The notes: generated from the sequence alone by a model not told the origin. DNA of 64,000 nt from an uncultured delta proteobacterium (GCA_963798485.1 CAWCTR010000008.1:32001-96000); one strand, 5' to 3'; shown: positions 19,562-59,971, counted from the first letter of the stretch. Made by a program: numbers and translations.

Positions 19562-19656
19562 GGTAAAGCCCTCCTGAACCACGGTCTGAGAATATCATAT
19601 AGCCCCTGGTTTTCCTTCAATAGGGAGGCGCTCCGTGATGATCAAGGGTTCCGGGT

Positions 19657-39761: not shown

Positions 39762-40251
39762 GGGCCCGGCAATCATTTAAATCACAGAGATTTCTACTTT
39801 TGTTTGAGTAAGGTGTTCTTATAGAACGATATACAGTACCTCTCTACGTAGCGTGTCGAGATCTCCGAATGATAGCTTCAGTATTAACTGACTAGAGATA
39901 ACCTCACGAAAGCATAACTTTTTGAACCGAGCCATAATTCAAGGTTTCGTGCCAGTATCGTCATTCCAGACATGGAACTCAAACAACATAGATATCATCA
40001 GCAGATCTTCAGTTTCAAAATATATTAAAACCTGAACATTTATCGCAGGAATCAACGATCCAGCAAATGATCTCATATTTATGATTATACTGTAGAGAAT
40101 TCTCAGGTCTTGTAATCCAACCATAATGCTATATAATTAAAACAATGGCTCTTTCCTCCTTTGTGATTTCCTATTCATCCAGAGAGCCCTTTGTTTTGGC
40201 ATTCTGAGTTACAGTATCATTGTTTATTATCGAAAGTGATAAGGAGAAACA

Positions 40252-41037: not shown

Positions 41038-41183
41038 AACCAGAGACAAACTCAGTGATGATTTCGTTCCAGGATCGGCACTCAGCGCTTGTAGCCTGAA
41101 TATCATAGATTTGAAAACGAAATGTTCAGTTTTCAGCCTTCTCAAAACCGTGATGAAATCGCAGAGATCTACGGTTTCATAAA

Positions 41184-41211
41184 AAGGCAGAGCCACAATT
41201 GACTCTGCCTT
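41184..41211. terminator. Hairpin, probable terminator
   Basis: aaggcagagcca-caat-tgactctgcctt. Confidence 0.5.
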
Positions 41212-41283
41212 AAATTATTCATAGGATCTATCAGGTCAAGAGGGTATTGCGTGTGCCATTATCAAAGGAGATAGAATATATTT

Positions 41284-42264
41284 ATGAAACCAGAATTAGT
41301 TCTCAGCTTATGTATGAAATTTATGGAATCAAGGATCCTACTAACTGCTACTGAACTTGATATATTCAGTCTCTTAACACATCCGATGTATGCCCGGGAA
41401 ATTGCGGATAAAACACAGGCCACCTTGCGCGGTGTCACGATATTACTTGATGCGCTTGTGTCTATAGGCTTACTCGAAAAGAAACAAACGAAATATTGTT
41501 GTTCACAGGAAGTATCCTCATTGTTATCGAAAGACTCACCGACTTCAATAGTACCAATGGTCATGCATACAGTTGGACTATGGAAAAGATGGTCAGATCT
41601 AACTGAGATCGTTCGACACGGTATACAAGAAACAAAACCTTTAGGACCTGCCAGGAGTGAAATCGAACAAGAGGCGTTCATTGGAGCCATGCATGCGATC
41701 GCATCCAGAATAGCCCCTGGTATCGTTGCAGCTATCAATCCTGGAGCAGCGAAAAATTTACTCGACATAGGTGGTGCATCAGGATCGTATACGCAAGCTT
41801 TTCTTGAGGTCTCCCCTGAAATGAGAGCGACAATATATGACTTACCTTCAGTTATTAACATGGCTCAAAAGCGTCTTGCTGCCACTGATTTTCATAATCG
41901 GATTACATACATTGCCGGCGATTTTTATTTAGATGAATTACCTGCAGGTTATGACCTTGTTCTCGTATCAGCTATCATTCACCAGAATAGTAATGAACAG
42001 AATATTGAACTGTACCGCAAGATTTATCGTTCTCTAATCTCAGGTGGAAGGCTTGTTATACGAGACCATGTCATGAGTCCTGATCATACCCATCCTACAA
42101 CGGGAGCCATTTTTGCTGTGAATATGCTGGTTGGGACCCTTGGTGGTTCCACCTACAGTTTTAAAGAAATCGATGAAGGACTTAAAACAGCTGGGTTTAC
42201 TAAAATCAGGCTTATTCAACCCGATAAGCACATGGATGGATTGGTGGAGGCATCTAAGATTTGA
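41284..42264 (+). CDS. SAM-dependent O-methyltransferase with dimerisation domain
   Basis: LLDIGGASG, YDLP, AGDF, GGRLVIRD. Confidence 0.88.
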   Translation: MKPELVLSLCMKFMESRILLTATELDIFSLLTHPMYAREIADKTQATLRGVTILLDALVSIGLLEKKQTKYCCSQEVSSLLSKDSPTSIVPMVMHTVGLWKRWSDLTEIVRHGIQETKPLGPARSEIEQEAFIGAMHAIASRIAPGIVAAINPGAAKNLLDIGGASGSYTQAFLEVSPEMRATIYDLPSVINMAQKRLAATDFHNRITYIAGDFYLDELPAGYDLVLVSAIIHQNSNEQNIELYRKIYRSLISGGRLVIRDHVMSPDHTHPTTGAIFAVNMLVGTLGGSTYSFKEIDEGLKTAGFTKIRLIQPDKHMDGLVEASKI

Positions 42265-43862: not shown

Positions 43863-44083
43863 CATAAGATGCAATAAGGTTAGATTGTTATCGAAGTGGG
43901 ACTGATAGTAATGTTTAAGGCATGTGTTAGTTCACATAAGATATTAGAAGCTCGCCTTCCATAAAAGTTGCGATATCTGTAATGGATGACAGCTTTTATA
44001 AGCTCGCAAAAGTTATGCTATCCAAGATATATTATTCCAGAAAGATGGGGAAAGGGTGAACAGAGTCCACCCATTCCCATTTG

Positions 44084-44227
44084 TTAGCAGTACAGGTTAT
44101 CAATCCATCGTGAGGCTTCTTTATCAGTGACCATACAAACATTGATGCCTTGTGATAGTAACACTATATACCACCAAATATCATCAAGATCGGCTGCAGC
44201 CAGTGGCCGTCTAAAAACCTTTGGCAT
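44084..44227 (-). pseudogene. parE: Truncated ParE/RelE toxin
   Basis: Starts in TGATG overlap with parD; MPKVFRRPLAAADLDDIWWYI then unrelated sequence, 47 aa in total. Confidence 0.7.
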
Positions 44228-44493
44228 CAGGATTTCGATTTCCCCTGTTGTGCTGCAAGGCGTTTGCGACCTCGTGCTTTAATTCCTCCTATATCCAAGG
44301 GAGTAGGATCACCGCTGTCTATACCCTTCTTTATTTCGGCTCTAAGTTCTTCCAGGCGCACGGCCCGTAGCCGGTCACGCTCGTCGAGAAGTCTCAATGC
44401 ATCTCGCATGACCTCACTTGCGGAACCATAAAGTCCGCTGTCGACTTTGCTTTTGACTAATTCTTCAAGTTGAGGGGTAAGGGATATATTCAT
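44227..44493 (-). CDS. parD: ParD-family (RHH) antitoxin
   Basis: MNISLTPQLE...SGLYGSASEVMRDALRLL...LRAEI..G..SG. Confidence 0.9.
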   Translation of the reverse strand: MNISLTPQLEELVKSKVDSGLYGSASEVMRDALRLLDERDRLRAVRLEELRAEIKKGIDSGDPTPLDIGGIKARGRKRLAAQQGKSKS

Positions 44494-44947
44494 AGTAAGC
44501 TCCTAATATTTAATAAACATGATAACAATAAATGTCAATCTTTGTTATCATCAGATTTTATCGGCAGATAAAAAATGATGGATTAATAAAGACCCGATTG
44601 AGATCAGGAAAGTTAAGATATTCAAGAGAGATCGAAAAGAGCTTCAAGACTTATTTTGATAGGAAGATCCTCACGATATCTGTACTTTCTGAGATGCTGA
44701 TTTGCGAAACAGTTCGCGATACGATGTGGATTCTGAAAAGATTAGCTCACGAGTATAGCTATCATCACAAGAGTTACACTTTGCCCACGCCGAAGATTTT
44801 GAAACAGAACATCTACTCTTCCTTTTAGCCTTCTACTCGGTGGAGGATGTGCCTTTCGTAAGCGAGGCGGTTACGCCTTACCGGCTGCCGCTCCCGCGCA
44901 GGTGGGAACATTTTGTATTGAAGATGTGTAAGAGAAAAGATTGATGT

Positions 44948-47900
44948 TTATAATTGAATAAGCTCTTTTGCCAGCTGCAGGGTCTTCCGGCTCAAAGGGC
45001 AGCCGAGATCGGCAACAATACGATTTTTGCACCGTTCATAGGTCTTGCGCACCATGGGGTTGTTTCCTGAAAGGGCATATAGGCGCATGAGATGAAGGTA
45101 GATATTTTCTGCATAGGCATCCACTGCAAGGTGCTTAATGCAGTAATCAATGGCCTTTGAATATTCTTTTTTTGAAAAAAAGAAGTCAATGATGCACTCA
45201 AGGACCGAGAGATACAACTCCTTGATGCGGTCACGTTCCTCCATACACCATGGCTCGTAGAGATCCTCGGTAAAAAGGTCGCCCTGATAGAGCTGCTCGG
45301 CCTCAAAGAGATGATCAATAGCCCTTGCAGGATCATGTGCAGTCTTAGCCTTGCGGCAAGCCTCTACAAATGACTCCAGGTCCACCGCGCCTTCTTTCCC
45401 GAGATCAAGCAGGTAGGTATCTCCATCGCTTTTCAGATAGGCTGAAGGGAGGCCACGTTTGAGGCCAGGTTCGAGTATCCTTCGCAGTGTCGTGAGTGCC
45501 ACATGGAAGCGGGCCGAGGTCTTTTCAGGATTGCCCTCCGGCCACAAATGCTCCATGAAGATCTCTTTACTTACAAAGCCTTTGCTGCGATAATGGATGA
45601 ACAGCTTGAAGAGCATCTTTGCCTTGCTGCTCGTCCACTTCTCGGGCTTTATCTCTTCCTGGCCTCTAAATACCTGGAACCTCCCCAGACAATGGACCCT
45701 CAATCCCGGCCGGGATGCCTCGGGAAGGGCCTTTAAGATGTCAGATATGGCCTGTGCCGATTCCCGGTCCACCTGTCTCTGGAAACCAATCAAACTCACA
45801 CGGGCACTGTCGCCTGCAATCATGAAGATCTTCTGGATATAGCCCTTCATAATGCCTTTCGAAAAGAGCATTACCAGGAGTGGCATCATCCATTCCCATT
45901 CACGGGCGACCCATCCCTCGTATCCATTGTCCTGTGCTATCCGGAGACATCTTTGAAGCCAAGCAAGTGCCTCTTCCCTCCGGCCCTTAAGCCAATAAAA
46001 AAGGGCATATATCCTGAAGATGAGACAATCAAAATAGGTCGAATAAGAGTTCTCGGCATGCACCTCCTGAAGAAGCCTCTCAGCCTCATCCATCCTGCTT
46101 TTCAATATAAAAACAGTAGCAAGTATGCATTTGGCCGGTACGGTTATATATGGCAGACTGATACCTCTGAGGGCTTCCAGGCATGCATCTGCCATTTGCT
46201 CTGCAAGGTCGACTTGCCTGGAATAGATATAGATTGTCCCGAGGGTGAGGTAGGCGCAACCTTCACCAAAATATGATCCCAGCTTTTGAAAATGCTTGAG
46301 ACTGTCTTCTGCATAGAGGATGGCTTCTTCAAACTTTCCAAGACCCGAAGCATTCATTCCCGCGAAGCACAGGATCCATCCGTATGAAAAATCCAGAAAA
46401 CCCTTTTCTTTTGACAGGGCCAGACCTTTGCAGGCCTCTTCAAGGCCAATCGCAAATGAGCCGAGAAAAAAATGCGCTATGGAGGTGAGTTGATAACAGA
46501 TGGTCAGAATACGTTGACTTTGGTATTTATAAAGTTTTTTCTTGGCAGCTTCCGCCAGATCGAGGGCCTTGAACATATCTCCGGAATTAACGTGCCGGAA
46601 GCCGTGATAGAGCATGAGATTGGCATGAGACACTTCCCTTAAAACAGGTTCTTCGATACCAGGCATGAACATGAGGGCCTTTTCATAATACCTGTCCGAT
46701 TCTTCGAGCTTACCGTATTGAGACGTTATGAACACCAGATGGATAAGCGCCTCCACCCGTGAAGAAAGGCTTAAGGAGGGACTCTTTAGCAATTCTTCAA
46801 AGATCTTCTCAGCCGAGGCGAAATCGCCTCTCAAGTAGAGACCTATTGCCATGGTATTCAAACAACTGTCTATACCGTGCTGATCCTGTTTCTCTTTGAA
46901 GAGAACCAGCGCCTTGAAGAAGCAGTTCCTCGCCTCCATGAACCTACCCGAGAAGATGTGGGTAAACCCACGCTGATATTCGAGCCATGGGTGGGGATGG
47001 AAAAAAGGCTCAGGGATCTTTTCCAGAAATGCATTCATGAGCTCAAGCCTGCCCGACCCGATCAGGGCCATGCTCATCCTTTCCAGAATAGGACAGGCTA
47101 GCTCGAATGCGCCGGCATTGAGATAGTGCCGGGCAGCTTCTTCATCATCACCGCTCTCTTCCAGGATCTGAGCCGCTTGAAGGTGCAGGCGGTCCTTTTC
47201 CTCACTGCCCATTTCACGGCTGAGTGCGGTCTGTAGATATTCCTGGAAGAGATGGTGATAGCAATATTCCTGCCCTTCTTCATCCAGGACAAAGGTGAAG
47301 AGGTGGCTCTTCTGGAGTCTTCTCAGGATCTTCGCCGCATTCGAAATATTAAGGAGCCGGTTGCAGAACAACGCGTTCAGCCTGGAGAGGATGGAAGTCT
47401 TGAGAAGGAAACTTTTCAACTCCGTATGGAGCAGGGCATACACGTTTTCCGCCAGGTAATCGGATATGAGCCTTCCCGAGCCCTTGAGCCTATGTATTTC
47501 CTGTTCGATATCCATGGTATTTTTTTGTCTAATGGAATGGAAAAAGAGGATCAGGGCGCTGACCCAGCCGGCTGTCTTTGCGTAAAGCACCTCAAGGGAG
47601 TCTTCCGTCAAGTCGATCCGGAAGAGCTGCTGGAAAAACTCGCCGGATCTCCTCGGAGGTGAAGATGAGGTCATCCTGGGAGATGTCGAGGACCTCGCGC
47701 ATGGTCCTCAGACGGGAGAGCTGCAGCGGATACCTCGGCGCGGCTGATGATGATAAGATGCGCCCGCGGGCAAAGGTTCTCCGCCAGAAGCTGAACCGTA
47801 TCACGGATCAGGGAGGTGTCCTGCACATGGTGATAATCATCCAGCACGATCATTAAATCTTTCTTCGAGTTCCGAACCGAGCTCATGGATAAAGAGGGCG

Positions 47901-48241
47901 ACCACCCCTTTATACTCCAGGCTTAAGGTTTCGCCTTCCTCCAATCGTTTTGCCGTTTCCTTCCCGAAGTCAGGATAAATCCTTCGGATGCCTGCGACAA
48001 GATGGGAAAGGAAGGTGGCAAAGTCACGGTCAAGGTCGTCCAGCCGATACCACGCCGTGTCATACCCCTGTACGGCCTGGGCGATCAGGGTGGTCTTGCC
48101 GTAACCTGCACCGGCTGTAACAACAGCAACCCTCTTTTCAGGAATCTCCAGTGTGAGCGGCCTGAGCTTGTTCCGGATGATAGTATCCAAAGTGCGCGGA
48201 ACCATCAGCTTCGAGAATAATATCGGAAATTCTTTTGCCAT
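44948..48241 (-). pseudogene. MalT-like STAND ATPase/TPR transcriptional regulator with C-terminal BTAD/SARP domain; three +1 frameshifts at about 47640-47870
   Basis: AGAGYGKTT, LDDYH, GW, YHHLF, LGRF, YQGD and E..Y..LM motifs spread over four consecutive ORF segments. Confidence 0.85.
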
Positions 48242-48331
48242 GATAGCAGTATATCGATTCGGGCAAATTAATTCACCATTAATTGTACTGTGATACAATG
48301 ATATGCATCAAACATTGAGGAGGTTTCTGTT

Positions 48332-48694
48332 ATGAGAAAGTTTGTTGCCATGTGTTTGCTTTGTTGTTTTGTCGGCTGCGGATCATTGGCCTATGCCGCG
48401 GACAGTGAATGCGACTGCAACTGCAAGACCGGAGGGTTGGGCATCAAGATCGGCAAATTCGTCTGTGGTTTCGGGTTTAAAAAGTTCAATTCGAAACTGG
48501 GATGTGATAAAAACATCGGTATTGGTCTCGGATTGGGTAGCGAGCTTCACCGGATTCAATTGGGTTTCGGGTTTGATGAGGGGGTATTCGGTTTCGGCAT
48601 CGGGTTAAAAGGCCCGGAAGAGACCACCAGTATGGGTTTCAGTCTGGGATACAACTATGGCGACTGCAGGATGGTCTGGCCCATAGAAGAATAA
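48332..48694 (+). CDS. Small exported Gly/aromatic-rich protein with Cys residues
   Basis: GAGGAGG RBS; signal peptide ending AYA; GxGxG alternating strands. Confidence 0.75.
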   Translation: MRKFVAMCLLCCFVGCGSLAYAADSECDCNCKTGGLGIKIGKFVCGFGFKKFNSKLGCDKNIGIGLGLGSELHRIQLGFGFDEGVFGFGIGLKGPEETTSMGFSLGYNYGDCRMVWPIEE

Positions 48695-48755
48695 TTATTC
48701 CATTCTCCTTTGATTTGTTTGATATTGGAGTGGGGAGATTTGAAAGGGGGGTCAT

Positions 48756-49652
48756 ATGATGATTTTGCGTCTTTCACGGCATTTTGTACTGTTCCTTTTT
48801 GTTTCGGCAAGCTTTCTCACCGGCTGCGCATCCACCATGGCCAAAATGACGGTGGACGGCATGAAGCCCCTCATGGAGGACATGCACACTGCAACGAACA
48901 GGAACCCCGATGTGGACCTGGTACGTACCGCCATGCCGGCGATGCTCGTGCAGATGGACGGGTTCATCAGGGTCTCTCCGGAAAACAGATACCTCCTGTA
49001 CAGTGCGGCTGAAGCAAACATGGGCTATGCATTCCTGTTCGTGGAAGACACGGACAAGGAACGGGCCAAGGCACAGTATCTGAAAGCCAGGGATTATGCC
49101 CTGCGAAACCTGGAGCTGAATCAGACATTCAAACATGCCCTGGAACAGGACGATGTCCAGGTTTTCACCAAGGCCCTGAATACTATCCATAAACGGGATA
49201 TCGCGGCCCTGTATTTTGCAACGAATTCCTGGCTGCAATGGATCAACCTCTCCCTCGGCGACCACCCGGAAGTTTTGAAAGATCTGCCCAAGGTGGAAGC
49301 CATGATGGACCGAGTGCTCGTTCTGGACGATACCTTTTATCATGGCGGCATCCATGCGCTTTTCGGCGTCTATTATGTTGCCCGGCCCGAGATGTTCGGA
49401 GGGCAGCCCGAGGAGTCACAAAAACATTTCAAGGAAGCATTCGATATATCGGAATCAAAGTATCTCATCTGGCATTTTCTGTATGCAAAATACTATGCGG
49501 TGCAGACCAAGGACAGGGAGCTCTTTGTATCCACGTTGAACAAGATCATGACCGCGCCGGATGATCTCCTGCCGGAAGAAGCCTTTGCGAATGCGGCAGT
49601 CAAACAGAAAGCCAGGGAGCTACTGCTCCATGTCGATGATTACTTTAAATGA
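48756..49652 (+). CDS. TatT-family (TRAP-T) TPR-like lipoprotein
   Basis: Lipobox LTGC; D..LV..A.PA, GYA..F.E, Y..AR.YA, P.MFGG.PE, YA..YA, N..AK.KA pattern. Confidence 0.8.
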   Translation: MMILRLSRHFVLFLFVSASFLTGCASTMAKMTVDGMKPLMEDMHTATNRNPDVDLVRTAMPAMLVQMDGFIRVSPENRYLLYSAAEANMGYAFLFVEDTDKERAKAQYLKARDYALRNLELNQTFKHALEQDDVQVFTKALNTIHKRDIAALYFATNSWLQWINLSLGDHPEVLKDLPKVEAMMDRVLVLDDTFYHGGIHALFGVYYVARPEMFGGQPEESQKHFKEAFDISESKYLIWHFLYAKYYAVQTKDRELFVSTLNKIMTAPDDLLPEEAFANAAVKQKARELLLHVDDYFK

Positions 49653-50614
49653 ACATGAGACAGTACATCATCAGAAGAATCCTCTATTCCCTGTTGATCC
49701 TGTTTCTTGTCTCCATTCTCATTTTCATCCTGGGGAGGGTATTGCCCGGAGATCCGGTGCGCGCCGCAATCCTTTCCTCAAGAATCGATGCCGTCAACAA
49801 CGAGATCATCCAGGAGCTCCGGATCCAGTTCGGGTTGGATAAGCCCCTTCCCGTACAATACTTCATCTGGATCAAAAGCTTCATCCGGGGTGACTGGGGC
49901 GTATCCATCGCCAGCGGAGAGCAGGTGTTCCCCATGTTCATGACCAGGCTGCCCATCACCCTGGAGCTCTTTGCAGGCTCTGTTTTCTGGGCCTCTCTCA
50001 TCGGGTTTCCGTTCGGGATCATCTCTGCGCTCAGACGCAATTCGTGGCTCGACGTATCCGTAACCACCAGCGCCATCATCGGTGTTTCCATCCCGGTATT
50101 CTGGGAGGGGATTATCATGATCTACCTCTTTGCAGTGATCACCCATATCTTCCCTCCATCAGGCTATGTACCCTTTTCAGAGAACGCATGGGGCAACCTC
50201 CTTTCCGTGGCCATGCCCACCTTTATCATGGGAACCCAGGGCGCGGGACTTCTGAGCAGATTCGTGCGGTCGAGCCTGCTGGAGGTTCTGGGCCAGGACT
50301 ACATCAGGACTGCATATGCCAAAGGCCTGCGGGAAAAGGCCGTGCTCCTCAGACACGCCATGAAGCCCGCCATGATACCCGTGGTCACGGTCATAGGGCT
50401 GACCTGGGGCTATGTGGTGGCAGGTTCCTTCATCGTCGAGTATATGTTCGCCATCCCCGGTCTTGGCCGCATGGGGGTGAATGCGATCTTTGCCAAAGAT
50501 TTCCCCGTGATCCAGGCCACCCTGATCATGGTCGCCGCCAACATCCTGCTGGTGAATCTTCTTGTGGACCTCTTATACGGGCTCATCGACCCGCGGGTGA
50601 GGGTGCAGCAATGA
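49649..50614 (+). CDS. dppB: Dpp/Opp/Nik ABC permease B
   Basis: LPGDP, GLDKP, QDYIRTAYAKG, FAIPGLG, DPRVR. Confidence 0.9.
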   Translation: MNMRQYIIRRILYSLLILFLVSILIFILGRVLPGDPVRAAILSSRIDAVNNEIIQELRIQFGLDKPLPVQYFIWIKSFIRGDWGVSIASGEQVFPMFMTRLPITLELFAGSVFWASLIGFPFGIISALRRNSWLDVSVTTSAIIGVSIPVFWEGIIMIYLFAVITHIFPPSGYVPFSENAWGNLLSVAMPTFIMGTQGAGLLSRFVRSSLLEVLGQDYIRTAYAKGLREKAVLLRHAMKPAMIPVVTVIGLTWGYVVAGSFIVEYMFAIPGLGRMGVNAIFAKDFPVIQATLIMVAANILLVNLLVDLLYGLIDPRVRVQQ

Positions 50615-51507
50615 ACAGCAATTATGAACAGAGTAACGGCCTTCTTCCCGGCCGAACCCATGGGCGGGCGGTCATACACACCCTTGCACATCACCGGATC
50701 GCATCCACAGGGATCATCATCTTTCTCTGCATCGCAGCCATGGCGATCTTCGCCCCTTTCCTTGTACCGTACAATCCGAACCAGCAGGATCTTTATCATG
50801 TCCTGGAAGGTCCTTCCCGGCTGCACCTGCTCGGCACCGACGACGTGGGCCGCGATCTGCTGTCCCGGGTCATCTATGGGTCCCGTGCCACGCTGCTCAT
50901 GGGAGGGCTTTCGACCTTGTTTTCAGCCGTCATAGGCGTGCTGCTGGGCTTGGTGGCCGGATACAAAGGCGGCATCATGGATATGATCATCATGCGCACC
51001 ACCGACACCTTCATGTGCATGCCTTCACTCGTATTGCTGCTCGCCATAGTGGCCGCTTTGGGGCCGGGCATTCAAAGCGTGATCATATCCATCACAGTTC
51101 TCTCGTGGACCGGGTTCGCGCGCATCGTCCGGGGCCAGGTGATGCAGGTGCGGGAGCTTCCTTATATCGAGGCGTCTCAGGCGCTGGGCGCTTCGGGTTT
51201 AAGGATCATGTTCAAACACCTCCTGCCCAATGTCATGGCCCCGATAATCGTCACCGCCTCTATTGCCCTTGGTGGAAACATCATGCTGGAAAGCGCGGTA
51301 TCATTCCTTGGACTCGGCGTGCAGCCTCCCACGCCGAGCTGGGGGAACGAGCTGAGAATAGGTTATTCTTATCTGGAGATCGTGCCTCTGTTTTCCTTTG
51401 CACCGGGATTGATGATAACGCTTTCCGTCCTTGCCTTCAACTTCATGGGCGACGGCCTGAGGGACGCCCTCGACCCGCGCCTGCGAGGTAATAACAGAAC
51501 AATATAA
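50611..51507 (+). CDS. dppC: Dpp/Opp/Nik ABC permease C
   Basis: HLLGTDDVGRD, YIEAS.ALG, HLLPN, GDGLRDALDPR. Confidence 0.9.
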   Translation: MNSNYEQSNGLLPGRTHGRAVIHTLAHHRIASTGIIIFLCIAAMAIFAPFLVPYNPNQQDLYHVLEGPSRLHLLGTDDVGRDLLSRVIYGSRATLLMGGLSTLFSAVIGVLLGLVAGYKGGIMDMIIMRTTDTFMCMPSLVLLLAIVAALGPGIQSVIISITVLSWTGFARIVRGQVMQVRELPYIEASQALGASGLRIMFKHLLPNVMAPIIVTASIALGGNIMLESAVSFLGLGVQPPTPSWGNELRIGYSYLEIVPLFSFAPGLMITLSVLAFNFMGDGLRDALDPRLRGNNRTI

Positions 51508-51515
51508 TAAACAAT

Positions 51516-52478
51516 ATGCTGCTGAAGGTTAACAACCTGACCACCCATTTTTATTCCGACGACGGCATCATCAAGGCCGTGGATGATATCTCATACGACC
51601 TTAAGGAAGGAGAGACGCTTGCCATTGTCGGAGAAAGCGGCTGCGGCAAGACCGTCAGCGCCCTTTCCCTTATGCGGCTCATCCCCGATCCTCCTGGGAG
51701 AATCGTGAATGGCGAAGTCATATTTGAAGGACGGGATCTTCTGAAAATGAGCGATGAGGAGATCTGCGACATCAGGGGCAACCGGATCGCCATGATCTTC
51801 CAGGAACCCATGACATCCCTCAATCCGGTGCTCTCTGTCGGCCTTCAGGTCATGGAACCCCTGATGCTCCACAAGGCCATGAGCAGAAAATCGGCGCTGA
51901 TTACATGCATCGATCTTCTCAAGAAGGTGCAGATCCCTGACGCCGAGACCATGACGAACGCATACCCGCATCAGCTCAGCGGCGGTATGAGGCAGCGGGT
52001 CATGATCTCCATGGGTCTTGCCTGCAACCCCAGGCTCATCATCGCAGACGAGCCCACCACCGCCCTTGATGTGACCATCCAGGCAGAGCTCCTGGAGCTC
52101 ATGAAGAATCTTACCCGGGACCGGGGCACAGCCCTGATCATCATCACCCACAACCTTGGTATTGTGGCACGGTATGCAGACAGGGTCATGGTCATGTATG
52201 CCGGTAAAATCATCGAGAAGGCTGTGACAAGGGACCTCTACCGCACCCCGCGGCATCCCTATACCATCGGGCTTCTTGAGTCGGTCCCGAGGCTCGATCA
52301 GGATATCAAACAGAAGCTCATCTCCATTGAAGGCCGGCCGCCGGACCTGGCCTGCCTGCCTTCCGGCTGTTCCTTCCATCCGCGGTGCAGGTATGCCCTC
52401 GACAGATGCGCTCAGGAAGCACCGATACTCAGAGAAACAGACGACGGTCATGAAGTTGCGTGCTGGATAGGGGTTTGA
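51516..52478 (+). CDS. dppD: Dpp/Opp ABC ATPase D
   Basis: GESGCGKT, LSGGMRQR, HPYT, C-terminal Cys motif. Confidence 0.92.
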   Translation: MLLKVNNLTTHFYSDDGIIKAVDDISYDLKEGETLAIVGESGCGKTVSALSLMRLIPDPPGRIVNGEVIFEGRDLLKMSDEEICDIRGNRIAMIFQEPMTSLNPVLSVGLQVMEPLMLHKAMSRKSALITCIDLLKKVQIPDAETMTNAYPHQLSGGMRQRVMISMGLACNPRLIIADEPTTALDVTIQAELLELMKNLTRDRGTALIIITHNLGIVARYADRVMVMYAGKIIEKAVTRDLYRTPRHPYTIGLLESVPRLDQDIKQKLISIEGRPPDLACLPSGCSFHPRCRYALDRCAQEAPILRETDDGHEVACWIGV

Positions 52479-52479
52479 C

Positions 52480-53463
52480 ATGAACGATACGCTTATCCAT
52501 GTAAACGGGCTTTCAAAGCACTTCCCCATCTATCACGGCGCGATCTTCAAGAAGAAAATAGGCGATCTGAAGGCCCTGGACGGGGTCAGCTTCGATATCT
52601 CAAAAGGGGAAACTCTCGGGCTCGTGGGAGAAAGCGGGTGCGGCAAAACGACAACCGGCCGGACCGTCCTCCAGCTCGAGCGACCCACATCCGGGGAGGT
52701 CCTCTTTCAGGGCAACGATATAACCAGGCTTAAGGAATACGAGCGCAGGAAGCTTAGGAAGCATATGCAGATCATCTACCAGGATCCCTTCGGGTCTCTG
52801 GACCCCAGGATGACGGTGGGCGATATTGTAGGCGAAGCGCTCCTGATCCATAATCTAACCCAAGGGAAAGGCGAATACGCCGAGAAGGTCCGTCACCTGC
52901 TGGAGATCGTGGGCTTGAACCCCGCCATGGCCGTGAGATATCCCCACGAGTTCAGCGGGGGGCAGCGGCAGCGCATCGGGATAGCACGGGCTCTGGCGGC
53001 AAGCCCGAGCTTCATCGTGTGCGATGAACCGGTCTCGGCCCTGGATGTATCGATACAGGCGCAGATCATCAACCTGCTGGAAGACCTTAAGGAAAAGCTC
53101 AACCTGACCTACTTGTTCATCGCCCATGACCTGTCGGTGGTCAGGCATATCAGCGACAGGATAGCGGTCATGTATCTGGGCGGGATCGTCGAGATCGCAA
53201 GCAGGGAGGACTTGTATCATAACCCGGGGCACCCCTACACAAAAGCGCTGCTTGCCGCTGTGCCCATACCCGACCCTGAGAAGGAGTACGGCCGGGAACA
53301 CTGCATGATCAAAGGAGAGGTCCCGAGCCTGTTCAATACCCCTCGGGGCTGCAAATTTCATCCCCGCTGCCCTCTCGCGCAGAAGACCTGCACGGAATCC
53401 AAGCCCGTGCTGAAGAGAATAAACAACAAAGATCATCTGGTGGCCTGCCACCTGGAAATTTGA
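52480..53463 (+). CDS. dppF: Dpp/Opp ABC ATPase F
   Basis: GESGCGKTT, FSGGQRQR, CDEPVSALD, VACH. Confidence 0.92.
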   Translation: MNDTLIHVNGLSKHFPIYHGAIFKKKIGDLKALDGVSFDISKGETLGLVGESGCGKTTTGRTVLQLERPTSGEVLFQGNDITRLKEYERRKLRKHMQIIYQDPFGSLDPRMTVGDIVGEALLIHNLTQGKGEYAEKVRHLLEIVGLNPAMAVRYPHEFSGGQRQRIGIARALAASPSFIVCDEPVSALDVSIQAQIINLLEDLKEKLNLTYLFIAHDLSVVRHISDRIAVMYLGGIVEIASREDLYHNPGHPYTKALLAAVPIPDPEKEYGREHCMIKGEVPSLFNTPRGCKFHPRCPLAQKTCTESKPVLKRINNKDHLVACHLEI

Positions 53464-53482
53464 TGTGAATGAGGAGGTTATC

Positions 53483-55456
53483 ATGATGAAACATTCTCAA
53501 AGAGAAAGAAATCTCACCACGAAGAACACAAAGGGAAAAGAATCACTTTGGTTTGGGAAACAAGTTCCTCCCTTTTGTAAAGGGAGGACAGGAGGGATTT
53601 TACGCCCATGCACTAAAATCTCCCCTGTCCCCTCCTTAAAAAGGAGGGGAACCTTATACCCTGCTTTTCTTCGTGCCCTTCGTGGTAAAAATATTATTGT
53701 GGCAGGCCTAGCCCTCGTTCTCTGTCTGACATTTTTAATCGATCATCCTGCTCAAGCACAGGACAATACTAAGGAAAAGTCGGGGTGGATGGAATGGGGG
53801 ACCAAATACTGTCCCGACAAGCCGGTCAGGGGCGGGTATGTCCGCGCTGCAGCGCCTCTGTACATCGGGTCCATGAATCCCAACCATTTCCCGGTCATGG
53901 ACTGGATAACCATGAGCACCATGTACGAGAAACTCATCAACCTGGACGGCAGCTACAAACCGACAATACCCTGGTTGGCCGAGTCCTGGGAGTATCTTGA
54001 CGATGTCACCGTGGTCATGAAGCTGAGAAAGGGCGTCATGTTCCATGACGGCTCGCCCTTCAATGCCAAGAGCCTGAAGTATCAGATGGACTGGATAATG
54101 GATAAGGACAACGCAGCATGGACCAGGGCCTGGATCGAGCCGCTGAAATCCGTAGACGTGATGGATGAGTACACGGTGAAATGGCATTTCAAAAGGTCAT
54201 GGGGTGCTTTTCTCGGTACCATGGCAAGTGTACCCGGATTTGCTGTTTCAGCAAAAGCGCTGGAACGTGATGCCGCCATGACAAAGACAAAAAAGATCGA
54301 ACGTGAACTCGTAACAGCAAGACGGAAGGCTGCCAATGAAAATGATGCCTGGAAGGCTGCAGAGGCAAAAAAGAGAGTGGCTGACCTGGAAGCACAGCTG
54401 AAAAGTTTCTCCGCGATTGCTCAAAATGCAAAGCCCCTCGACACCAACCCGGTGGGCACCGGACCGTATATGCTGGAGGCAGCAAGCACGGATAACTATG
54501 TAACGCTGAAAAGAAACCCGAACTGGTGGTTCGGCAGGAGCATCGGCATGCCGGACATGCCGTACTTCGACGGGATGAAGATATCCGTCATTCCCGACCC
54601 GTCCGTAAGGCTTGCAAATCTCAAGGCCGGCACAATCGACTTCATCGTGCTGAACGCCAACCAGTACAAACTGGTAAAAGACGATCCGAACTTTGATGTA
54701 GCCACCTTTCCCGTGAACTGGCTGGTATTTCTGACCTTCAACAATGCAAAGGGGCCTTGCGCGGATATCCGTGTCCGCCAGGCAATCTCCCACGCAATCG
54801 ATAGGAAAGCGCTGGTCATGGGAACCCAGTTCGGCCTCGGCAGAGTCTCCAGCTGCATATATCCGAACGATCACTGGGCCCACAATCCTGACTTGAAGCC
54901 CGTCAGCTACGATCCTGAATTATCCAGGAAGCTCCTTGCTCAAGCCGGTTATGGCGGTGGCCTCACCATAAAAGGGTTCACCCTCAATTCACCCGAGGCC
55001 CAGGCCTTCGCAAAGGCAGTGATGGCCATGCTCGAAAAGGTCGACATCACGTGGAAGCCGGTATTTCTGGGCGTTACCGGCATGATGGAGCCGTTTAAGA
55101 AAATGGATTTCGATATGATCGGGAACCTGTATCCCTGGATACAGGAACCGGATCATGTAGCCACCCTTCTCTATGACCCGGACAGCCCGTTCAACAATGG
55201 CCGGAGCCGTAATACAAAGGCCATTGCACTGATAAAGGCAGGGAGAGAAACAACCGACGTTGCAAAAAGGGCAAAGATCTACCACCAGCTGGAAAAGGTG
55301 CTCTACGACAACTACGAGGACGCCTGGCTCTGGTGGCCCAATGCAGTCCTGGCTTCCAGCAGGAATGTACGGGGATTCAACCTTGACATGAATATTAAAT
55401 ACGGGGAAGGGTACTATTTCTCACATCCGCAATGGTTCAGAGATGGGCATCCTTGA
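53483..55456 (+). CDS. Family 5 (cluster C) ABC substrate-binding protein
   Basis: LAESW, LRKGV.FHDG, PVGTGPY, VRQAISHAIDR; GAGGAGG RBS. Confidence 0.9.
   Translation: MMKHSQRERNLTTKNTKGKESLWFGKQVPPFCKGRTGGILRPCTKISPVPSLKRRGTLYPAFLRALRGKNIIVAGLALVLCLTFLIDHPAQAQDNTKEKSGWMEWGTKYCPDKPVRGGYVRAAAPLYIGSMNPNHFPVMDWITMSTMYEKLINLDGSYKPTIPWLAESWEYLDDVTVVMKLRKGVMFHDGSPFNAKSLKYQMDWIMDKDNAAWTRAWIEPLKSVDVMDEYTVKWHFKRSWGAFLGTMASVPGFAVSAKALERDAAMTKTKKIERELVTARRKAANENDAWKAAEAKKRVADLEAQLKSFSAIAQNAKPLDTNPVGTGPYMLEAASTDNYVTLKRNPNWWFGRSIGMPDMPYFDGMKISVIPDPSVRLANLKAGTIDFIVLNANQYKLVKDDPNFDVATFPVNWLVFLTFNNAKGPCADIRVRQAISHAIDRKALVMGTQFGLGRVSSCIYPNDHWAHNPDLKPVSYDPELSRKLLAQAGYGGGLTIKGFTLNSPEAQAFAKAVMAMLEKVDITWKPVFLGVTGMMEPFKKMDFDMIGNLYPWIQEPDHVATLLYDPDSPFNNGRSRNTKAIALIKAGRETTDVAKRAKIYHQLEKVLYDNYEDAWLWWPNAVLASSRNVRGFNLDMNIKYGEGYYFSHPQWFRDGHP
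53516..53686. repeat. Nested palindromic element within the 5' coding region of the binding protein
   Basis: Outer IR accacgaag.../...cttcgtggt; inner 39-bp IR 53564-53602 / 53614-53652. Confidence 0.8.
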
Positions 55457-55490
55457 GTATAAAGTCCGACACAATACGAGGTATGATAAA

Positions 55491-56790
55491 ATGGAAACAT
55501 TTCAGGAGCGCATTGCGTATTTGGATAACATAAGAAATATTCTAGTATATAATGTCGTTCTTGTTCATATCATCTTAATGTTCGCCTATCCTTTGAGTTT
55601 CTGGTGGTCGGTTATCGATAAAAATGGGTCATCCAGTGTCTATAAAAATCATCTCGTTATAATGGATATTTACTTGATGCCTCATCTTATGTTCATTGCC
55701 GCACTTTTTATATTCCCTTCCCTGAATGCTACATCTACAATAATTTATATTAAAAAAAGATTTTTTAGAATCTTTGTACCGATAATTGTATTTACTTTTT
55801 GCGCAGGAGATATTTTTTATCAAATCCTATTTAAACGATTAGACAACTCCAATCCAACCTATATCCTTACATTCCTTGATTACTGGCGTGACTTTATAAA
55901 TTTTTAAAGTAATTACTTTTATCGGGGAAGGTAAAATGTTGAACCAGATTAGTTTTAATATGTCTCATGCCTGGTTTTTATCATTTCTTTTTTTCATGAC
56001 ATTAGTAGCCGTCTTATTGACTATACCCTTCAAGAAAAAAGAAAAAGTGCAGAGTGAAGTTGAAAGCAGGAAAAAAATAATAATTAAAACAATTATCCTG
56101 GCCGTGATACTCGGCTTTTTCTATGCAGTGCTCGCAATATTGTTTTCTGTTAAGGGTATTCGTTTTGATTCATGGATACGGGTATTCGGATTGGTTCAGG
56201 TTCGGCTTAATCAATTCTTTATACTTCTACCCTTGTTTCTACTTGGTTTATTTATGTACAGGAAGGATTGGCTGACCAGAGGAGATATCGGGAGCTGGAA
56301 AATGTGGGGCATGATATCAGCAGTTTTGATTTTTGTTTATGTCTTGCTTTTCCATAACAGACTTTCCCCCACTTTGGACGAATTATATAAGATTGCTGAA
56401 CATAATATGATTTACTCGGATAAAATACCATTCCCGGTAATTACAGATTCTTTTAAACAGACCGGTTTGATTATTTATATTCTGACTGTGCCGATATGTA
56501 TATTTCTTTTAATGTTTTTTCTTTCTTTTACTAAGAAATATTTTAACAAACACAATAAAATAACGGAATTTTGTTCAAAGCATTCCATCAATGTATATCC
56601 TCATCCACTGATTGCTCTATCATTTTTTGTAATACTAAAACTGGTCTCGCTATTTATAGGCTTTGACTTTTATTATATAGCTCTTTTGACCGTGATTTTT
56701 ATTTCTTTTGCAGGCGCCATCTATGAATCTGTAAGGTTACTGGTATCTGGAAAAGCCAGCGGACAGAAATTTATAAGTTCGCAGTTATAA
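55491..56790 (+). pseudogene. Acyltransferase_3 (OpgC/MdoC-like) membrane protein, frameshifted at T-run 55901-55905
   Basis: RIAYLDNIR...H, KKRFFRIFVP, HAWFL; AT-rich; removing one T joins the two ORFs. Confidence 0.78.
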
Positions 56791-56909
56791 CATCATAGCA
56801 GATTTGATTACAAGTCAGTTTTATAATAGCTTTATTTTTAGTTCAGCAGATGTGAAGATGTATGTACCACATGACAAAGGGAATAAATAATAATATAGAT
56901 TAGCAACTA

Positions 56910-56957
56910 GGGGCGGTTTTATTGGTAGTGAATGACAATCAACTGAATCGCCCCCCT
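56910..56957. repeat. Imperfect inverted repeat (REP-like)
   Basis: ggggcggttttattg ... caactgaatcgcccc. Confidence 0.45.
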
Positions 56958-56985
56958 ATCTGGTTAAGAAAGGAGAAGAAAACAG

Positions 56986-57270
56986 ATGTCAACATTCATT
57001 TTATTCGGAAGGTATTCACCCGAGGCATTAAAAGGGGTAAGTTCAGCTCGAACCAAGAAGGCATTGACCCTGGTTAAAAAATTCAATGGCAAGATCCTTT
57101 CCATGTATGCCCTGCTTGGAGAAAAGGACCTCATGTTCATTGCAGATTTTCCCGGAATTGAAGAGGTCATGCAGGCATCGGTTGCCTTGCACAAACTTAC
57201 AGGCATCTCATTTTCCACATCAGCTGCTGTTTCAGTCGATAAGTTCGACAAACTGATGGCAGAGATCTGA
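56986..57270 (+). CDS. GYD domain-containing protein
   Basis: 94 aa; G..LSMYALLGEKDL pattern; AGGAG RBS. Confidence 0.75.
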   Translation: MSTFILFGRYSPEALKGVSSARTKKALTLVKKFNGKILSMYALLGEKDLMFIADFPGIEEVMQASVALHKLTGISFSTSAAVSVDKFDKLMAEI

Positions 57271-57326
57271 TCAAGGCCAGTTAAACAATAACTGGATAGA
57301 TCCATAAAAACTGAAGGGGTGGATCT

Positions 57327-57398
57327 GGGGTCAGGTCTTGCTTTTTGCTTTTCATAAACCGTGCATGTCCCTATAAGCAAAAAACAATACCAGACCCC
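57327..57398. repeat. REPIN/MITE-like inverted repeat
   Basis: 24-bp arms ggggtcaggtcttgctttttgctt / aagcaaaaaacaataccagacccc with 24-bp spacer. Confidence 0.7.
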
Positions 57399-57654
57399 GC
57401 GCTTTCCTTATCTCCGCTCCAGCGGAGATTAACAGAAAATCGACCCTATTTGCCTCGTGTAGGCATAGACGCCAGAGGTGCCAATCAAGGTCTTGATGGA
57501 GCTGAGGGGCGCAGAATATTATCTATCTTCCTGGGCAAGCCTTCGGCTTTGCCCAGGCCACCCAGAAACCAGTCTGTCATTTATTTAGGCCACCCGCCCA
57601 TGCTTGTAAGGCACGGCATGGCGCAGCTCTACTCCCATCAGGCACAGGCTAAGG

Positions 57655-58623
57655 TCAATTGACCAAGCTCTCCGGTATCTGACCCTGCATTACCTTAACA
57701 ATATTGGAGATGGTCATGGTGATGATGCGCCCCTGGGCCTCCTGGGAGACGCCCGCGACATGCGGGGATAGGATGACATTGTCCGCGGCTGTCGCGAGCA
57801 GCGGATTCGTCTGATCGATGGGTTCTGCGCTGAAGACATCGAGGGCCGCTCCGCCGAGTTTCCCGCCCCGCAACGCCTCGGCCAGGGCCGGCTCATCGAT
57901 GACCTCGCCGCGGGCCACGTTGATGACCACGGCCCTGGGTTTCATGAGGGCGATATTGTCCCGGCTGATGAGGCCCGTCGTCTCCTTTGTCAGCGGACAA
58001 TGCAGGCTGAGCACGTCGGCGCTTCTGAGCACGTCTTCCAATCCGGCAAAGATTACCTGGTAGCGTTTTTCTTCCGCGGCCTCTATCCGGAAGGGATCGA
58101 AATAGATCATCCGGGGGCCGAAGGGGATCAACCGCTCGGCCACGGCCTTGCCGATCCGTCCGAATCCCACGAATCCCCATGTCTTGCCGAAGAGCTCGAC
58201 CGGCCGCACTTCCATTTGCCGCCATTCACCCGAGGCCGTCGTACGGGCGGCGTAGAAGATGTTCTTGAGAAGACACAGGGCGGTCATGACGGTGTGCTCG
58301 GCCACGGCGATGGTATTGGCCCCGGCGGTGTTGGCGACCTTGATGCCGAACTCCGTGCAGGCGGCGACGTCGATGTGCTGATAGCCCACGCTCGGCTGTT
58401 GGATGAGCTTCACCCGCCGGGCGGCCTGTGCTACCTCGCGCGTGATCCGGCGCTGGAAGGTGTAATCGCCGATGATATACCCGGCGTCCTTGACGGCCTC
58501 AACGATCTGCTCAGGGTTGAATCCGCTCCCATCGACTACCTCGAGCCCCTCCACTCCTTGCATCTTGAACAATTCATTGATGATTACGGCCGGCAGCGGC
58601 GCCAGGGAAACAATCTTCTCCAT
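57655..58623 (-). CDS. D-isomer-specific 2-hydroxyacid dehydrogenase
   Basis: AVAEH, GFGRIG, HCPLT, NVARG, DVF..EP, SPHVAG. Confidence 0.92.
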   Translation of the reverse strand: MEKIVSLAPLPAVIINELFKMQGVEGLEVVDGSGFNPEQIVEAVKDAGYIIGDYTFQRRITREVAQAARRVKLIQQPSVGYQHIDVAACTEFGIKVANTAGANTIAVAEHTVMTALCLLKNIFYAARTTASGEWRQMEVRPVELFGKTWGFVGFGRIGKAVAERLIPFGPRMIYFDPFRIEAAEEKRYQVIFAGLEDVLRSADVLSLHCPLTKETTGLISRDNIALMKPRAVVINVARGEVIDEPALAEALRGGKLGGAALDVFSAEPIDQTNPLLATAADNVILSPHVAGVSQEAQGRIITMTISNIVKVMQGQIPESLVN

Positions 58624-58744: not shown

Positions 58745-59666
58745 CTATTCCAGGACAGCGCCGCGGGCGGCAGAGCCGACCATTTTAATATAGCGGCGCA
58801 TATACCCCGGCGGGATCTCACGCAGAACCGGTTTCCAGGCCGCCAGACGCCTCTTGATCTCCTCGTCGCTGAGGTTGACGGTGAGTGCGCGGGCCGGGAT
58901 ATCGATGGTGATCATGTCGCCGTCGCGGATGACGGCGATCGGTCCGCCGCAGTCCGCCTCCGGCGAGACGTGGCCGATGCACGGTCCGGCCGTGGCCCCG
59001 GAGAAACGCCCATCCGTAATGAGGGCCACGCGGGTAAAGCCCGCCAGGTCGAGGCCCATGGTCACGGCCAAGGTTTCGGGCATGCCGGGGCCGCCCTCGG
59101 GGAGCGGATGACAGAAGGCCCATGGGCCTTGTCCGGGATGACGCGCCTCGGCGTATCTTGACCACGGCCTGCTCCACGATCTCGCGCACCGTCAGGCCTG
59201 AGACCGTCATGGGACCCGGGTGCAGGTCGTCGGCGAGCATCTTCATGACGGCAGGTATGCCGCCGGCCACGAAGAGGTCGATGATCCCGTGCGGACCGTT
59301 GGGGGAGATCCCGCACAAGGTGGGGATAATGCGGTTGAAATCATTGATATCGGCGATGAGATCGCGCTGCGCCGGAACGAAGTGCATCCCCGGGTGGCCT
59401 TCGGTCATTCCGTCGCAGGGGGCGGGGACGTTGAACTCAAAAGGCAGTCCCCCGGCTGCGTGTACCCCTTCCTTGACCCGCTGGGCAATGGGCCCGAGGT
59501 GCATGTGACCGGGGTTGATCTCAGTCAGCGAGTTCGCGATGCCGATGATCGGTTTGGCGCGGCCCTCGTCCAGGTCGACGCCCGTGCCTTGAAAGATCGA
59601 CTTCCGTACGATGCTGATGGGAAAATCGCTATCGTCGAAGATAGGTGTACTCTGCGGTTTCTTCAT
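58745..59666 (-). pseudogene. ilvD: Dihydroxy-acid dehydratase (IlvD/Edd family) with large internal deletions and frameshifts
   Basis: [36 protein letters not shown] and HVSPE motifs in only about 920 bp. Confidence 0.85.
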
Positions 59667-59971
59667 GTACCTCCTTCTATGTTCATGCCTGCGGTACAAG
59701 CTTACCATACTAGAAATAGCATGACGTTGGAAGACCTACCCCATTATCTCGCTCGTCATGACAAATCAATTTTTGATGATGCAATAGAACACTATGATGC
59801 CATCGGCCTGGCAGGTAACACGAACCCTGATCTTGCAGAGCCTTCCTGGATGCCGGCCTGGAACAGGGAGAAATACCCCGATAGTCACCCGTTGTCTGTC
59901 CAGGAGGCGCATGTTATATAACCGCCAGGTGAGGATATGTTTGTAGTTGTTCTTACAAAGGAGGTTCCTGA

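Follow-up and report, generated by a model that had tools for sequence, protein, structure and literature searches.

A TatT-family lipoprotein gene joined to an Opp/Dpp/Nik-type ABC importer operon in an uncultured delta proteobacterium

TatT was first described as a fourth component, found in an uncommon type of tripartite ATP-independent periplasmic (TRAP) transporter, and the binding of fatty acids or sterols by proteins of this family has been shown only recently. What might such a protein do when its gene is joined to those of an ATP-binding cassette (ABC) importer? The question is raised by positions 48,332 to 55,456 of a 64,000-nucleotide stretch of DNA from an uncultured delta proteobacterium (GCA_963798485.1 CAWCTR010000008.1:32001-96000), the whole of which is called the window below. 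Here the gene of a TatT-family lipoprotein directly precedes a complete set of genes for an importer of the Opp/Dpp/Nik type, and the same gene order was found again in 21 assemblies. By analogy with characterised relatives, we suggest that this TatT supplies the importer's binding protein with a ligand that is hydrophobic or amphipathic, a reading to which we assign a probability of about 60%.

The TatT gene and its operon

ORF (open reading frame) calling places seven closely spaced genes in 48332-55456, all on the plus strand and all intact in the window (Table 1). A preliminary description of the locus had TatT heading the operon and placed the start of the locus at 48332; that position belongs to a separate gene for a secreted protein of 120 residues, and tatT is the second gene. 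The overlap between tatT and the first permease gene, which was also described, is real and consists of the ATGA at 49649-49652, in which the stop codon of the one and the start codon of the other are combined. A second ATGA, at 50611-50614, joins permease 1 to permease 2 in the same way.

The product of the second gene is a clear match to the Pfam model TAtT, with an E of 5.6e-70 and a score of 236.1 bits where 26.5 is the cut-off; the match takes in positions 2-263 of the 263 in the profile, and this bears out the family to which it had been assigned. In a phmmer search of the PDB its closest solved relative by sequence is 8g52_A (E 1e-16 over residues 137-289), the palmitate-bound Es_TatT of Enhygromyxa salina, which belongs to the same Pfam family. 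Tp0956 of Treponema pallidum (3u64_A) is matched at E 5e-11 over residues 50-297, a homology that extends along the whole protein. The N-terminal stretch closes with a lipobox, FLTGC, of which C24 is invariant and G23 nearly so among 32 aligned sequences. The mature protein is acidic, with 31 Lys and Arg residues against 40 Asp and Glu (net charge -9; median -8 over 32 TatTs). Among 1278 candidates, 205 matched the window's TatT at E <= 0.001, the closest of them up to 83% identical, and PF16811 is present in all 120 of the 205 matches that were listed. The named sources of the close relatives are metagenome-assembled genomes (MAGs) labelled Desulfomonilia, Desulfobacterales and the like; a tblastn search of a plasmid collection gave no match. 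Judged from its sequence, the gene is that of a full-length, true TatT-family lipoprotein.

The genes downstream supply the parts that define an importer of the Opp/Dpp/Nik type, namely two BPD_transp_1 permeases, two ATPases with ABC_tran and oligo_HPY domains, and one SBP_bac_5 binding protein. The preliminary description had named them dppB, dppC, dppD, dppF and a family 5 binding protein. All five are present, and the dpp names hold at the level of the family only, as none of the ABC parts reaches the cut-off of an NCBIfam equivalog for Dpp, Opp, Nik or Gsi. For permease 1 the best NCBIfam match is to the Opp2B nickel permease (293.5 bits, cut-off 350) and for permease 2 to Opp4C (307.2 bits, cut-off 350), with Opp1C/NikC matches at 277-283 bits, again below cut-off. 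ATPase 1 scores 382.5 bits with the OppD subfamily model (cut-off 575) and ATPase 2 scores 404.8 bits with that of OppF (cut-off 540).

The absence of dctP, dctQ and dctM from the window, which had also been claimed, withstood two tests: a Pfam scan found none of these domains in 57 window ORFs of at least 90 residues, and profiles of DctP, DctQ and DctM derived from related loci gave no match in the window's stop-to-stop ORFs of at least 60 residues. The term TPAT denotes a TRAP transporter with a T component (PMC5812351; this paper, PMC10942540 and PMC11713862 are cited here and below from excerpts). Such a system combines TatT with DctP- and DctQ/DctM-type genes, none of which is found in the window or in the 21 loci described below. 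Because this defining TRAP feature is missing, the system should, on sequence grounds, not be given the name TPAT. It belongs to two families, TatT and the Opp/Dpp/Nik group of ABC transporters, and the preliminary description was right to place its architecture outside the TPAT definition, as that definition is worded in the excerpts of PMC5812351.

Table 1. Features of the operon and of its divergent neighbour, in window coordinates.
Feature	Position	Strand	Remarks
Regulator-like gene (STAND-NTPase/TPR/BTAD), divergent	44948..48298	-	At least two ORFs; TPR_MalT, BTAD, TPR_12 (Pfam)
Small secreted protein, 120 aa	48332..48694	+	First gene of the cluster; no family match
TatT-family lipoprotein, 298 aa	48756..49652	+	Pfam PF16811; lipobox L-T-G-C with Cys24
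ABC permease 1 (OppB/DppB/NikB type)	49649..50614	+	BPD_transp_1 + BPD_transp_1_N
ABC permease 2 (OppC/DppC/NikC type)	50611..51507	+	OppC_N + BPD_transp_1; start codon checked
ABC ATPase 1 (OppD/DppD type)	51516..52478	+	ABC_tran + oligo_HPY
ABC ATPase 2 (OppF/DppF type)	52480..53463	+	ABC_tran + oligo_HPY
Family-5 substrate-binding protein	53483..55456 (ORF 53465-55456)	+	SBP_bac_5, E 3.1e-71
Extra in-frame DNA in the binding-protein gene, about 190 nt, strongly structured	53490..53690	+	Window-specific
Basic helical hairpin insert of the binding protein (mature residues 167-225)	54263..54439	+	Model and alignment

Recurrence and inheritance of the gene order

In one scan of species-representative genomes, patterns made from the window's TatT and 31 homologues gave 75 matches, of which 51 encode a TatT relative, at 48 distinct loci (Table 2). 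At 21 of these 48, a share that describes the window's TatT subfamily, from which the patterns were drawn, and not the TatT family as a whole, tblastn located, immediately after TatT and in the same orientation, genes for permeases B and C, ATPases D and F and the binding protein. The preliminary description had considered that the linkage might be unique to this genome; instead it recurs in 21 assemblies and tracks the TatT tree. All of the ABC-linked loci are from Desulfobacterota-type MAGs, and MAGs with the labels Desulfosudis oleivorans, Desulfonema limicola and Desulfobacterium are among those that have the operon. All five genes are seen at 16 of them, and the other five loci are cut by a contig end. 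Across the 21 assemblies the identities of TatT span 48-79% and those of permease B 64-83%. The distance from the TatT stop to the permease start is estimated at between -10 and 246 nt. The locus-derived profiles detected no DctP, DctQ or DctM within up to 10 kb on each side of the ABC-linked loci; the same profiles find DctQ and DctM at nine other loci, and DctP at four of those nine.

Table 2. The 48 TatT loci of the survey, grouped by the neighbours of TatT.
Neighbours of TatT	Loci	Number
ABC importer genes (21 assemblies)	L001-L007, L009-L014, L025, L027, L032, L034, L038, L043, L044, L045	21
TRAP genes	L018, L022, L028, L035, L037, L040, L041, L047, L048	9
Aldo/keto reductase	L017, L026, L029, L030, L033, L036, L039, L042	8
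Beta-lactamase-fold, TetR and/or SulP genes	L015, L016, L019, L020	4
Peptidase M24 and MscS	L021, L023	2
Unclear or truncated	L008, L024, L031, L046	4

A careful IQ-TREE analysis was made of 47 TatT rows, from which L014 (12 stops in the match) and L046 (150 residues only) were omitted. In this tree the window's TatT falls in a clade of 18 rows, made up of 17 ABC-linked rows and L008, with an ultrafast bootstrap of 100 and an SH-aLRT of 97. The remaining ABC-linked rows (L025, L027, L032 and L045) are on long branches just outside this clade and are weakly resolved. The ABC label requires three changes on the tree, compared with a mean of 15.7 when labels are shuffled, and a quick tree of all 49 rows agrees with the careful one. 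When all 22 ABC rows and L008 were constrained to form one clade, the approximately unbiased (AU) test did not reject the arrangement (p-AU 0.576), and the constrained tree was better by 1.36 log-likelihood units than that from the free quick search. A single origin of the linkage between TatT and the ABC genes is therefore not rejected by the sequences. The TRAP-linked rows are basal if the tree is rooted on the distant L047; this root is a long branch and is not relied on.

Over 13 operons, the distances between TatTs correlate closely with those between the corresponding binding proteins (r 0.888), a value that was equalled in none of 5000 permutations and is the highest among the gene pairs tested. 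As far as sequences can tell, TatT and the binding protein are inherited as a unit; shared descent alone can give such a correlation, which is therefore no demonstration of contact between them.

The operon type also has a companion gene. The small protein encoded ahead of TatT consists of a signal peptide, a Gly-rich part, four invariant cysteines (C29, C31, C58 and C112 in an alignment of 15 copies) and a conserved C-terminal DCRMVWP motif, and it has no match in Pfam or NCBIfam. Within the locus DNA examined, homologues occur in one position only, immediately upstream of TatT, and do so at 15 of the 48 loci. Fourteen of these loci are ABC-linked and the fifteenth is L008, so that seven of the 21 ABC-linked loci are without the gene. 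In the careful tree 14 of the loci form, with the window, a clade of 15 rows (support 92/88); L014 has the small gene and is absent from that tree. An AlphaFold2 model of the small protein contains six beta strands and is of moderate confidence, with a mean predicted local distance difference test (pLDDT) score of 75.3. Foldseek found nothing like it in the PDB at E <= 0.001 (best E 0.16), and the best ESM Atlas score, 0.78, is below the level worth following. A word-based search gave 25 matches, all unnamed and without Pfam domains, and in a profile search 15 of 1.84 billion cluster representatives matched at E <= 1e-3. The small protein is a narrow orphan family tied to the TatT-ABC operon type.

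The binding protein and the proposed transfer of a ligand

If TatT serves the importer, the binding protein is the part that would be expected to receive its ligand. The Shine-Dalgarno sequence and the ATG at 53483 are conserved when compared with L001, L002 and L014. The core of the signal peptide is encoded by 53693-53761 and the mature part from about 53765; the signal peptide closes with AQA, so that the protein is secreted without a lipid anchor. Homologues at 13 loci are 56-78% identical to it. Its best PDB match is 5u4o_A, an unnamed binding protein (E 2.3e-38), followed by HbpA, DppA and NikA, and its best NCBIfam match is NikA, at 150.5 bits (cut-off 393). In the phmmer alignment with E. 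coli DppA, the Arg of PVQRP and the Asp of WTGDNG both fall opposite gaps in the window's protein. Over the aligned stretches, the DppA chains 8z1y_F and 8z1z_F differ at these two residues only, and we take them to be the contacts for the C-terminus and the N-terminus of the peptide, respectively. Because both positions fall in gaps, a plain dipeptide is an unlikely substrate, at least as judged from the alignment.

A further distinctive feature of the binding protein is an insert of 54-76 residues between two conserved anchors, present in all 59 of the relatives that were aligned, whose identity to the window's protein is 55-90%. Solved family-5 proteins align in two stretches that flank the insert. 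An AlphaFold2 model from a 14-sequence alignment was poor overall (mean pLDDT 63.4), and we use from it only the secondary structure of the insert, which is predicted as two long antiparallel helices with a pLDDT of 77-88 in this block. The hairpin is basic, with a net charge of +5 in the window and a median of +4 over the 59 relatives, and its charge is complementary to that of the acidic TatT; this is a circumstantial point. The importer has the same five core parts, with the same domain make-up, as DppABCDF and NikABCDE of E. coli. It differs from them in having the binding-protein gene last rather than first, in the TatT gene and, often, the small secreted-protein gene that precede the permeases, and in a binding protein that carries the hairpin and is without DppA's two ligand-end contacts.

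On the reading that we prefer, TatT would be a periplasm-facing lipoprotein, co-transcribed and translationally coupled with a type I ABC importer. On the outer side of the periplasm it would take up a ligand of low solubility in water, probably one that bears acyl groups or is amphipathic, and hand it to the binding protein, for which the basic helical hairpin is a candidate dock for the acidic TatT. The binding protein would then deliver the ligand to the permeases, with ATP hydrolysis driving import, and in one subclade the small four-cysteine beta protein may be a further extracytoplasmic part. This mechanism is drawn by analogy with TatT and TatP of T. pallidum and with relatives of TatT that bind fatty acids or sterols. 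The pore of T. pallidum TatT is hydrophobic, and the protein is found in complex with its P component (PMC5812351). Long-chain fatty acids are ligands of Es_TatT and Tp0956, solved TatT relatives hold lipid in the pore (PMC11713862), and BstC binds sterols (PMC10942540).

The known systems resemble that of the window to differing degrees. In the T. pallidum TPAT (Tp0956, the TatP(T) protein Tp0957, and TatQM), as in the window, a TatT lipoprotein is encoded in an operon with a binding-protein-dependent importer, and a common logic is proposed for the two, in which a hydrophobic ligand goes from TatT to a binding protein in the periplasm. It is, however, a secondary TRAP transporter with a binding protein of the DctP type (family 7), whereas the window encodes an ATP-driven importer without DctQ or DctM and a family 5 binding protein (cluster C type) that is secreted and not lipidated. 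Es_TatT likewise has its context in TRAP fatty-acid transport (PMC11713862), unlike the ABC context seen here. BstABC of Methylococcus capsulatus provides a precedent for a TatT-superfamily protein, BstC, that works without P, Q or M, and BstB, its partner, has the fold of a PhnD-like ABC-type binding protein (PMC10942540). The membrane partner of that system is a resistance-nodulation-division (RND) protein and sterol export has been proposed, whereas the window has a complete ABC importer. The window's TatT scores 18.7 bits with the BstC model NF045602, far from its cut-off of 350, and is not a BstC; no RND or sterol gene lies next to the operon among the Pfam-scanned window ORFs.

Several observations weigh against the transfer of a hydrophobic ligand to this binding protein. 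Two positions only, G198 and E227, separate ABC-linked TatTs from the others, and this gives little sign, at the level of sequence, that a partner surface was remodelled in the ABC-linked proteins. The permeases and the binding protein have their nearest named relatives among nickel/metallophore and peptide systems, a kinship that would point to hydrophilic substrates and gives no hint of lipid. Flanking genes of a lipid type occur at a minority of the loci and are lacking in the window. The survey, as noted, speaks for one TatT subfamily, and inside the ABC clade itself L008 has the small gene and TatT but no ABC genes in 1.6 kb downstream; on this 5.2-kb contig TatT is followed by about 900 nt of non-coding DNA and then by an unrelated gene.

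The last of these points concerns the window's own copy of the binding-protein gene. Between the conserved ATG and the signal-peptide core lie about 190 nt of in-frame, stop-free DNA that are missing from the same junction in L001, L002 and L014, and of which no second copy was found in the window or in the compared loci. Its RNA fold consists of three hairpins side by side (-78.2 kcal/mol, z -6.29; none of 200 shuffles is as good), and translation from the conserved ATG would add about 70 basic residues ahead of the signal peptide. The extra DNA may represent a small element that was inserted, a structure with a regulatory role or an artefact of the assembly, and with this odd insert the window's copy of the binding protein may not be fully functional.

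The kinship to nickel systems raises the possibility that the importer takes up a metal or metallophore, in the manner of Nik, Cnt or Opp2 transporters, with the small cysteine protein and the binding protein handling a metal complex and TatT serving that complex, or the binding protein, instead of a lipid as a periplasmic chaperone or tether. The best NCBIfam matches of the parts are indeed largely of the nickel type (Opp2B, Opp1C/NikC and NikA, at the scores given above), NikA chains are among the PDB matches of the binding protein (E about 4e-28), the small protein has an invariant C-x-C pair and two more invariant cysteines, and the peptide-end contacts of DppA are missing. Every one of the nickel-type matches is nevertheless below its curated cut-off, and generic peptide and heme/glutathione binders (5u4o, HbpA, DppA) score at least as well as NikA. 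The cysteine protein, moreover, is absent from a third of the ABC-linked loci (7/21), no metal-responsive regulator or metalloenzyme gene recurs in the scanned flanks, and all characterised TatT relatives bind lipids, according to the excerpts of PMC11713862 and PMC10942540. We consider uptake of metal to be unlikely.

It is likewise improbable that TatT is a ligand-free scaffold which tethers or concentrates the soluble binding protein close to a membrane, or assists its folding or docking, while the importer takes an ordinary hydrophilic substrate such as an oligopeptide. The helices of TatT do resemble tetratricopeptide repeat (TPR) motifs, the usual mediators of protein-protein contacts (PMC5812351, PMC10942540), and a binding protein that is not itself lipid-anchored, together with the complementary charges of hairpin and TatT, would suit a tether. 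However, 46 positions are at least 95% conserved across all 45 TatT rows compared, despite neighbours as different as ABC genes, TRAP genes, the aldo/keto reductase cluster and others, and this is better explained by a shared ligand-handling core. The lipid in the pore of solved relatives (PMC11713862) and the missing peptide contacts of DppA also speak against it. Very improbable, and disfavoured, is an adjacency without functional meaning, in which the partner of TatT is a TRAP transporter from another part of the genome: 64 kb of that genome were inspected, and some MAGs do have several TatT paralogues of which one is TRAP-linked (JBGSLR01 holds L027, with ABC genes, and L037, with TRAP genes), but stop and start codons overlap, the gene order is kept in 21 assemblies over the 48-79% span of TatT identities, the ABC-linked TatTs group in the tree separately from those linked to TRAP genes, and the distances of TatT and the binding protein co-vary.

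The transfer of a hydrophobic or amphipathic ligand from TatT to the binding protein may be carried further in a proposal that is tentative and, in our opinion, doubtful. The TatT-ABC operons could constitute a separate transporter class, a "TPR-protein-associated ABC importer", devoted to the uptake of lipids or other hydrophobic compounds across the whole envelope of anaerobic Desulfobacterota. The small protein would then be located at or in the outer membrane, TatT would be a periplasmic lipid chaperone and the hairpin-bearing binding protein the receiver, with ATP-driven import through Opp-type permeases completing the path. In the same proposal TatT would be a modular adaptor, which in the course of evolution was combined with TRAP, ABC, RND and even redox-enzyme modules.

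Other TatT loci, the surroundings of the operon, and implications

The neighbours of the 27 loci that are not ABC-linked (Table 2) were determined from 116 scanned ORFs and eight more. A sister group of TatT paralogues has a long aldo/keto reductase gene after TatT in place of a transporter. At seven of these eight loci (all but L017) the reductase is followed by at least one of DUF6599, DUF362 and a membrane polyferredoxin (Fer4_5), and an acyl-CoA thioesterase gene is often found upstream. Because of these aldo/keto reductase-type neighbourhoods, the survey suggests that TatT also serves redox enzymes. At five of the TRAP-linked loci (L018, L022, L037, L040 and L048) TatT is followed by DctQ and DctM, and profiles detected no DctP-type gene in the locus DNA searched (E <= 1e-5); at L037 and L040 an ORF of 312-323 residues without a Pfam match comes after DctM. 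The group of L015, L016, L019 and L020 has a convergent gene of the beta-lactamase fold (a serine hydrolase) at three of its four loci; genes for a TetR regulator and a SulP/STAS transporter are also seen wherever the contig extends far enough. A gene of multiple ankyrin repeats adjoins TatT at three ABC-linked loci (L010, L043 and L045) and at three that are TRAP-linked or cut (L028, L031 and L035); the encoded proteins are 35-51% identical to each other and are a possible further recurrent partner of TatT. Single MAGs may hold three or more TatT paralogues with differing neighbours, as in DYJC01, which has L011 (ABC), L015 (hydrolase) and L029 (aldo/keto reductase).

The genes around the operon are not part of it in any conserved sense. 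The divergent gene upstream has a P-loop, MalT-like N-terminus, a TPR_MalT region and a C-terminal BTAD domain, with partial NCBIfam matches to MalT; it changes frame at least three times within about 47550-47850, and Pfam detected no helix-turn-helix domain in it. A tblastn search found no homologue of it at any of the 48 TatT loci, where a FadR-type GntR regulator, a TetR regulator or no nearby regulator is present. Because this gene is not part of the conserved module, the control of the operon by a divergent MalT-like regulator, which the preliminary description had proposed, is unsupported. On the other side, an Acyl_transf_3 gene (55443-56790, plus strand) is in two ORFs, the first of which overlaps the stop of the binding-protein gene. 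Both the regulator and the acyltransferase gene were considered as members of the module and were rejected, as tblastn found neither at any other locus. A Thioredox_DsbH-type gene and an ILVD_EDD_N fragment (17500-19582 and 58818-59708, both on the minus strand) are possibly broken as well. The split genes of the window are either pseudogenes or the result of indel errors in the assembly.

Flanks were compared at 20 loci, for which 60 of 97 flanking ORFs were scanned, the shorter or more distant ones having been dropped, and those of the 21 TatT-ABC operons are not conserved. An ADC-family (acetoacetate-decarboxylase) gene and an acyl-CoA dehydrogenase gene lie directly upstream, on the same strand, at L008, L009, L038 and L044. 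An ADC-family gene is downstream at L027 and a distant one is present at L013, L003 and L014 have a FadR-type GntR regulator and a GlpD-like gene, and TetR regulators occur in the flanks of L004 and L034. There is thus a weak lipid theme in these variable flanks, and the ADC-family gene may mark a catabolic pathway that is fed by the importer.

The GC content is about 0.50-0.56 over the first five genes of the operon and 0.47 over most of the binding-protein gene. Local dips are seen at 40001-42000 (0.395) and at 54001-58000 (0.43-0.47), compared with about 0.50-0.56 around them; the second spans most of the binding-protein gene and the split acyltransferase gene, and may be recently acquired DNA. 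Consensus scans for promoters and terminators gave counts that are not above those of shuffled sequence (14 against 12.0 and 8 against 9.6, respectively), an Rfam search of window positions 44000-58000 had no match at E <= 0.1, and megablast found no near match to the window among E. coli genomes.

Full-text literature searches turned up neither a TatT-ABC operon nor the hairpin-bearing binding proteins nor the small cysteine protein, a result on which the primary paper behind the following figure, and its supplements, may bear. A 2024 review states that about 25% of TatTs have genomic partners non-homologous to P, Q and M, with BstC as its example (PMC11713862). TatTs without such partners are therefore already in print, as the excerpt of that review makes clear, and the novelty of the present arrangement is lower than the preliminary description assumed.

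If the proposed transfer is correct, the coupling of TatT to an ATP-driven importer throughout a clade would mean that the lipid-chaperone step is independent of the energy-coupling module. Since the literature searched contains no accessory lipoprotein or hydrophobic cargo of this kind for the Opp/Nik-type family, the coupling would also widen the known substrate range of that family. The operons provide testable candidates for the passage of insoluble substrates through the periplasm of anaerobic bacteria that degrade fatty acids or hydrocarbons, and experiments could start from two specific parts, the small cysteine protein and the hairpin insert; they would point to an undescribed route for the uptake of poorly soluble compounds in sulfate-reducer-like bacteria.

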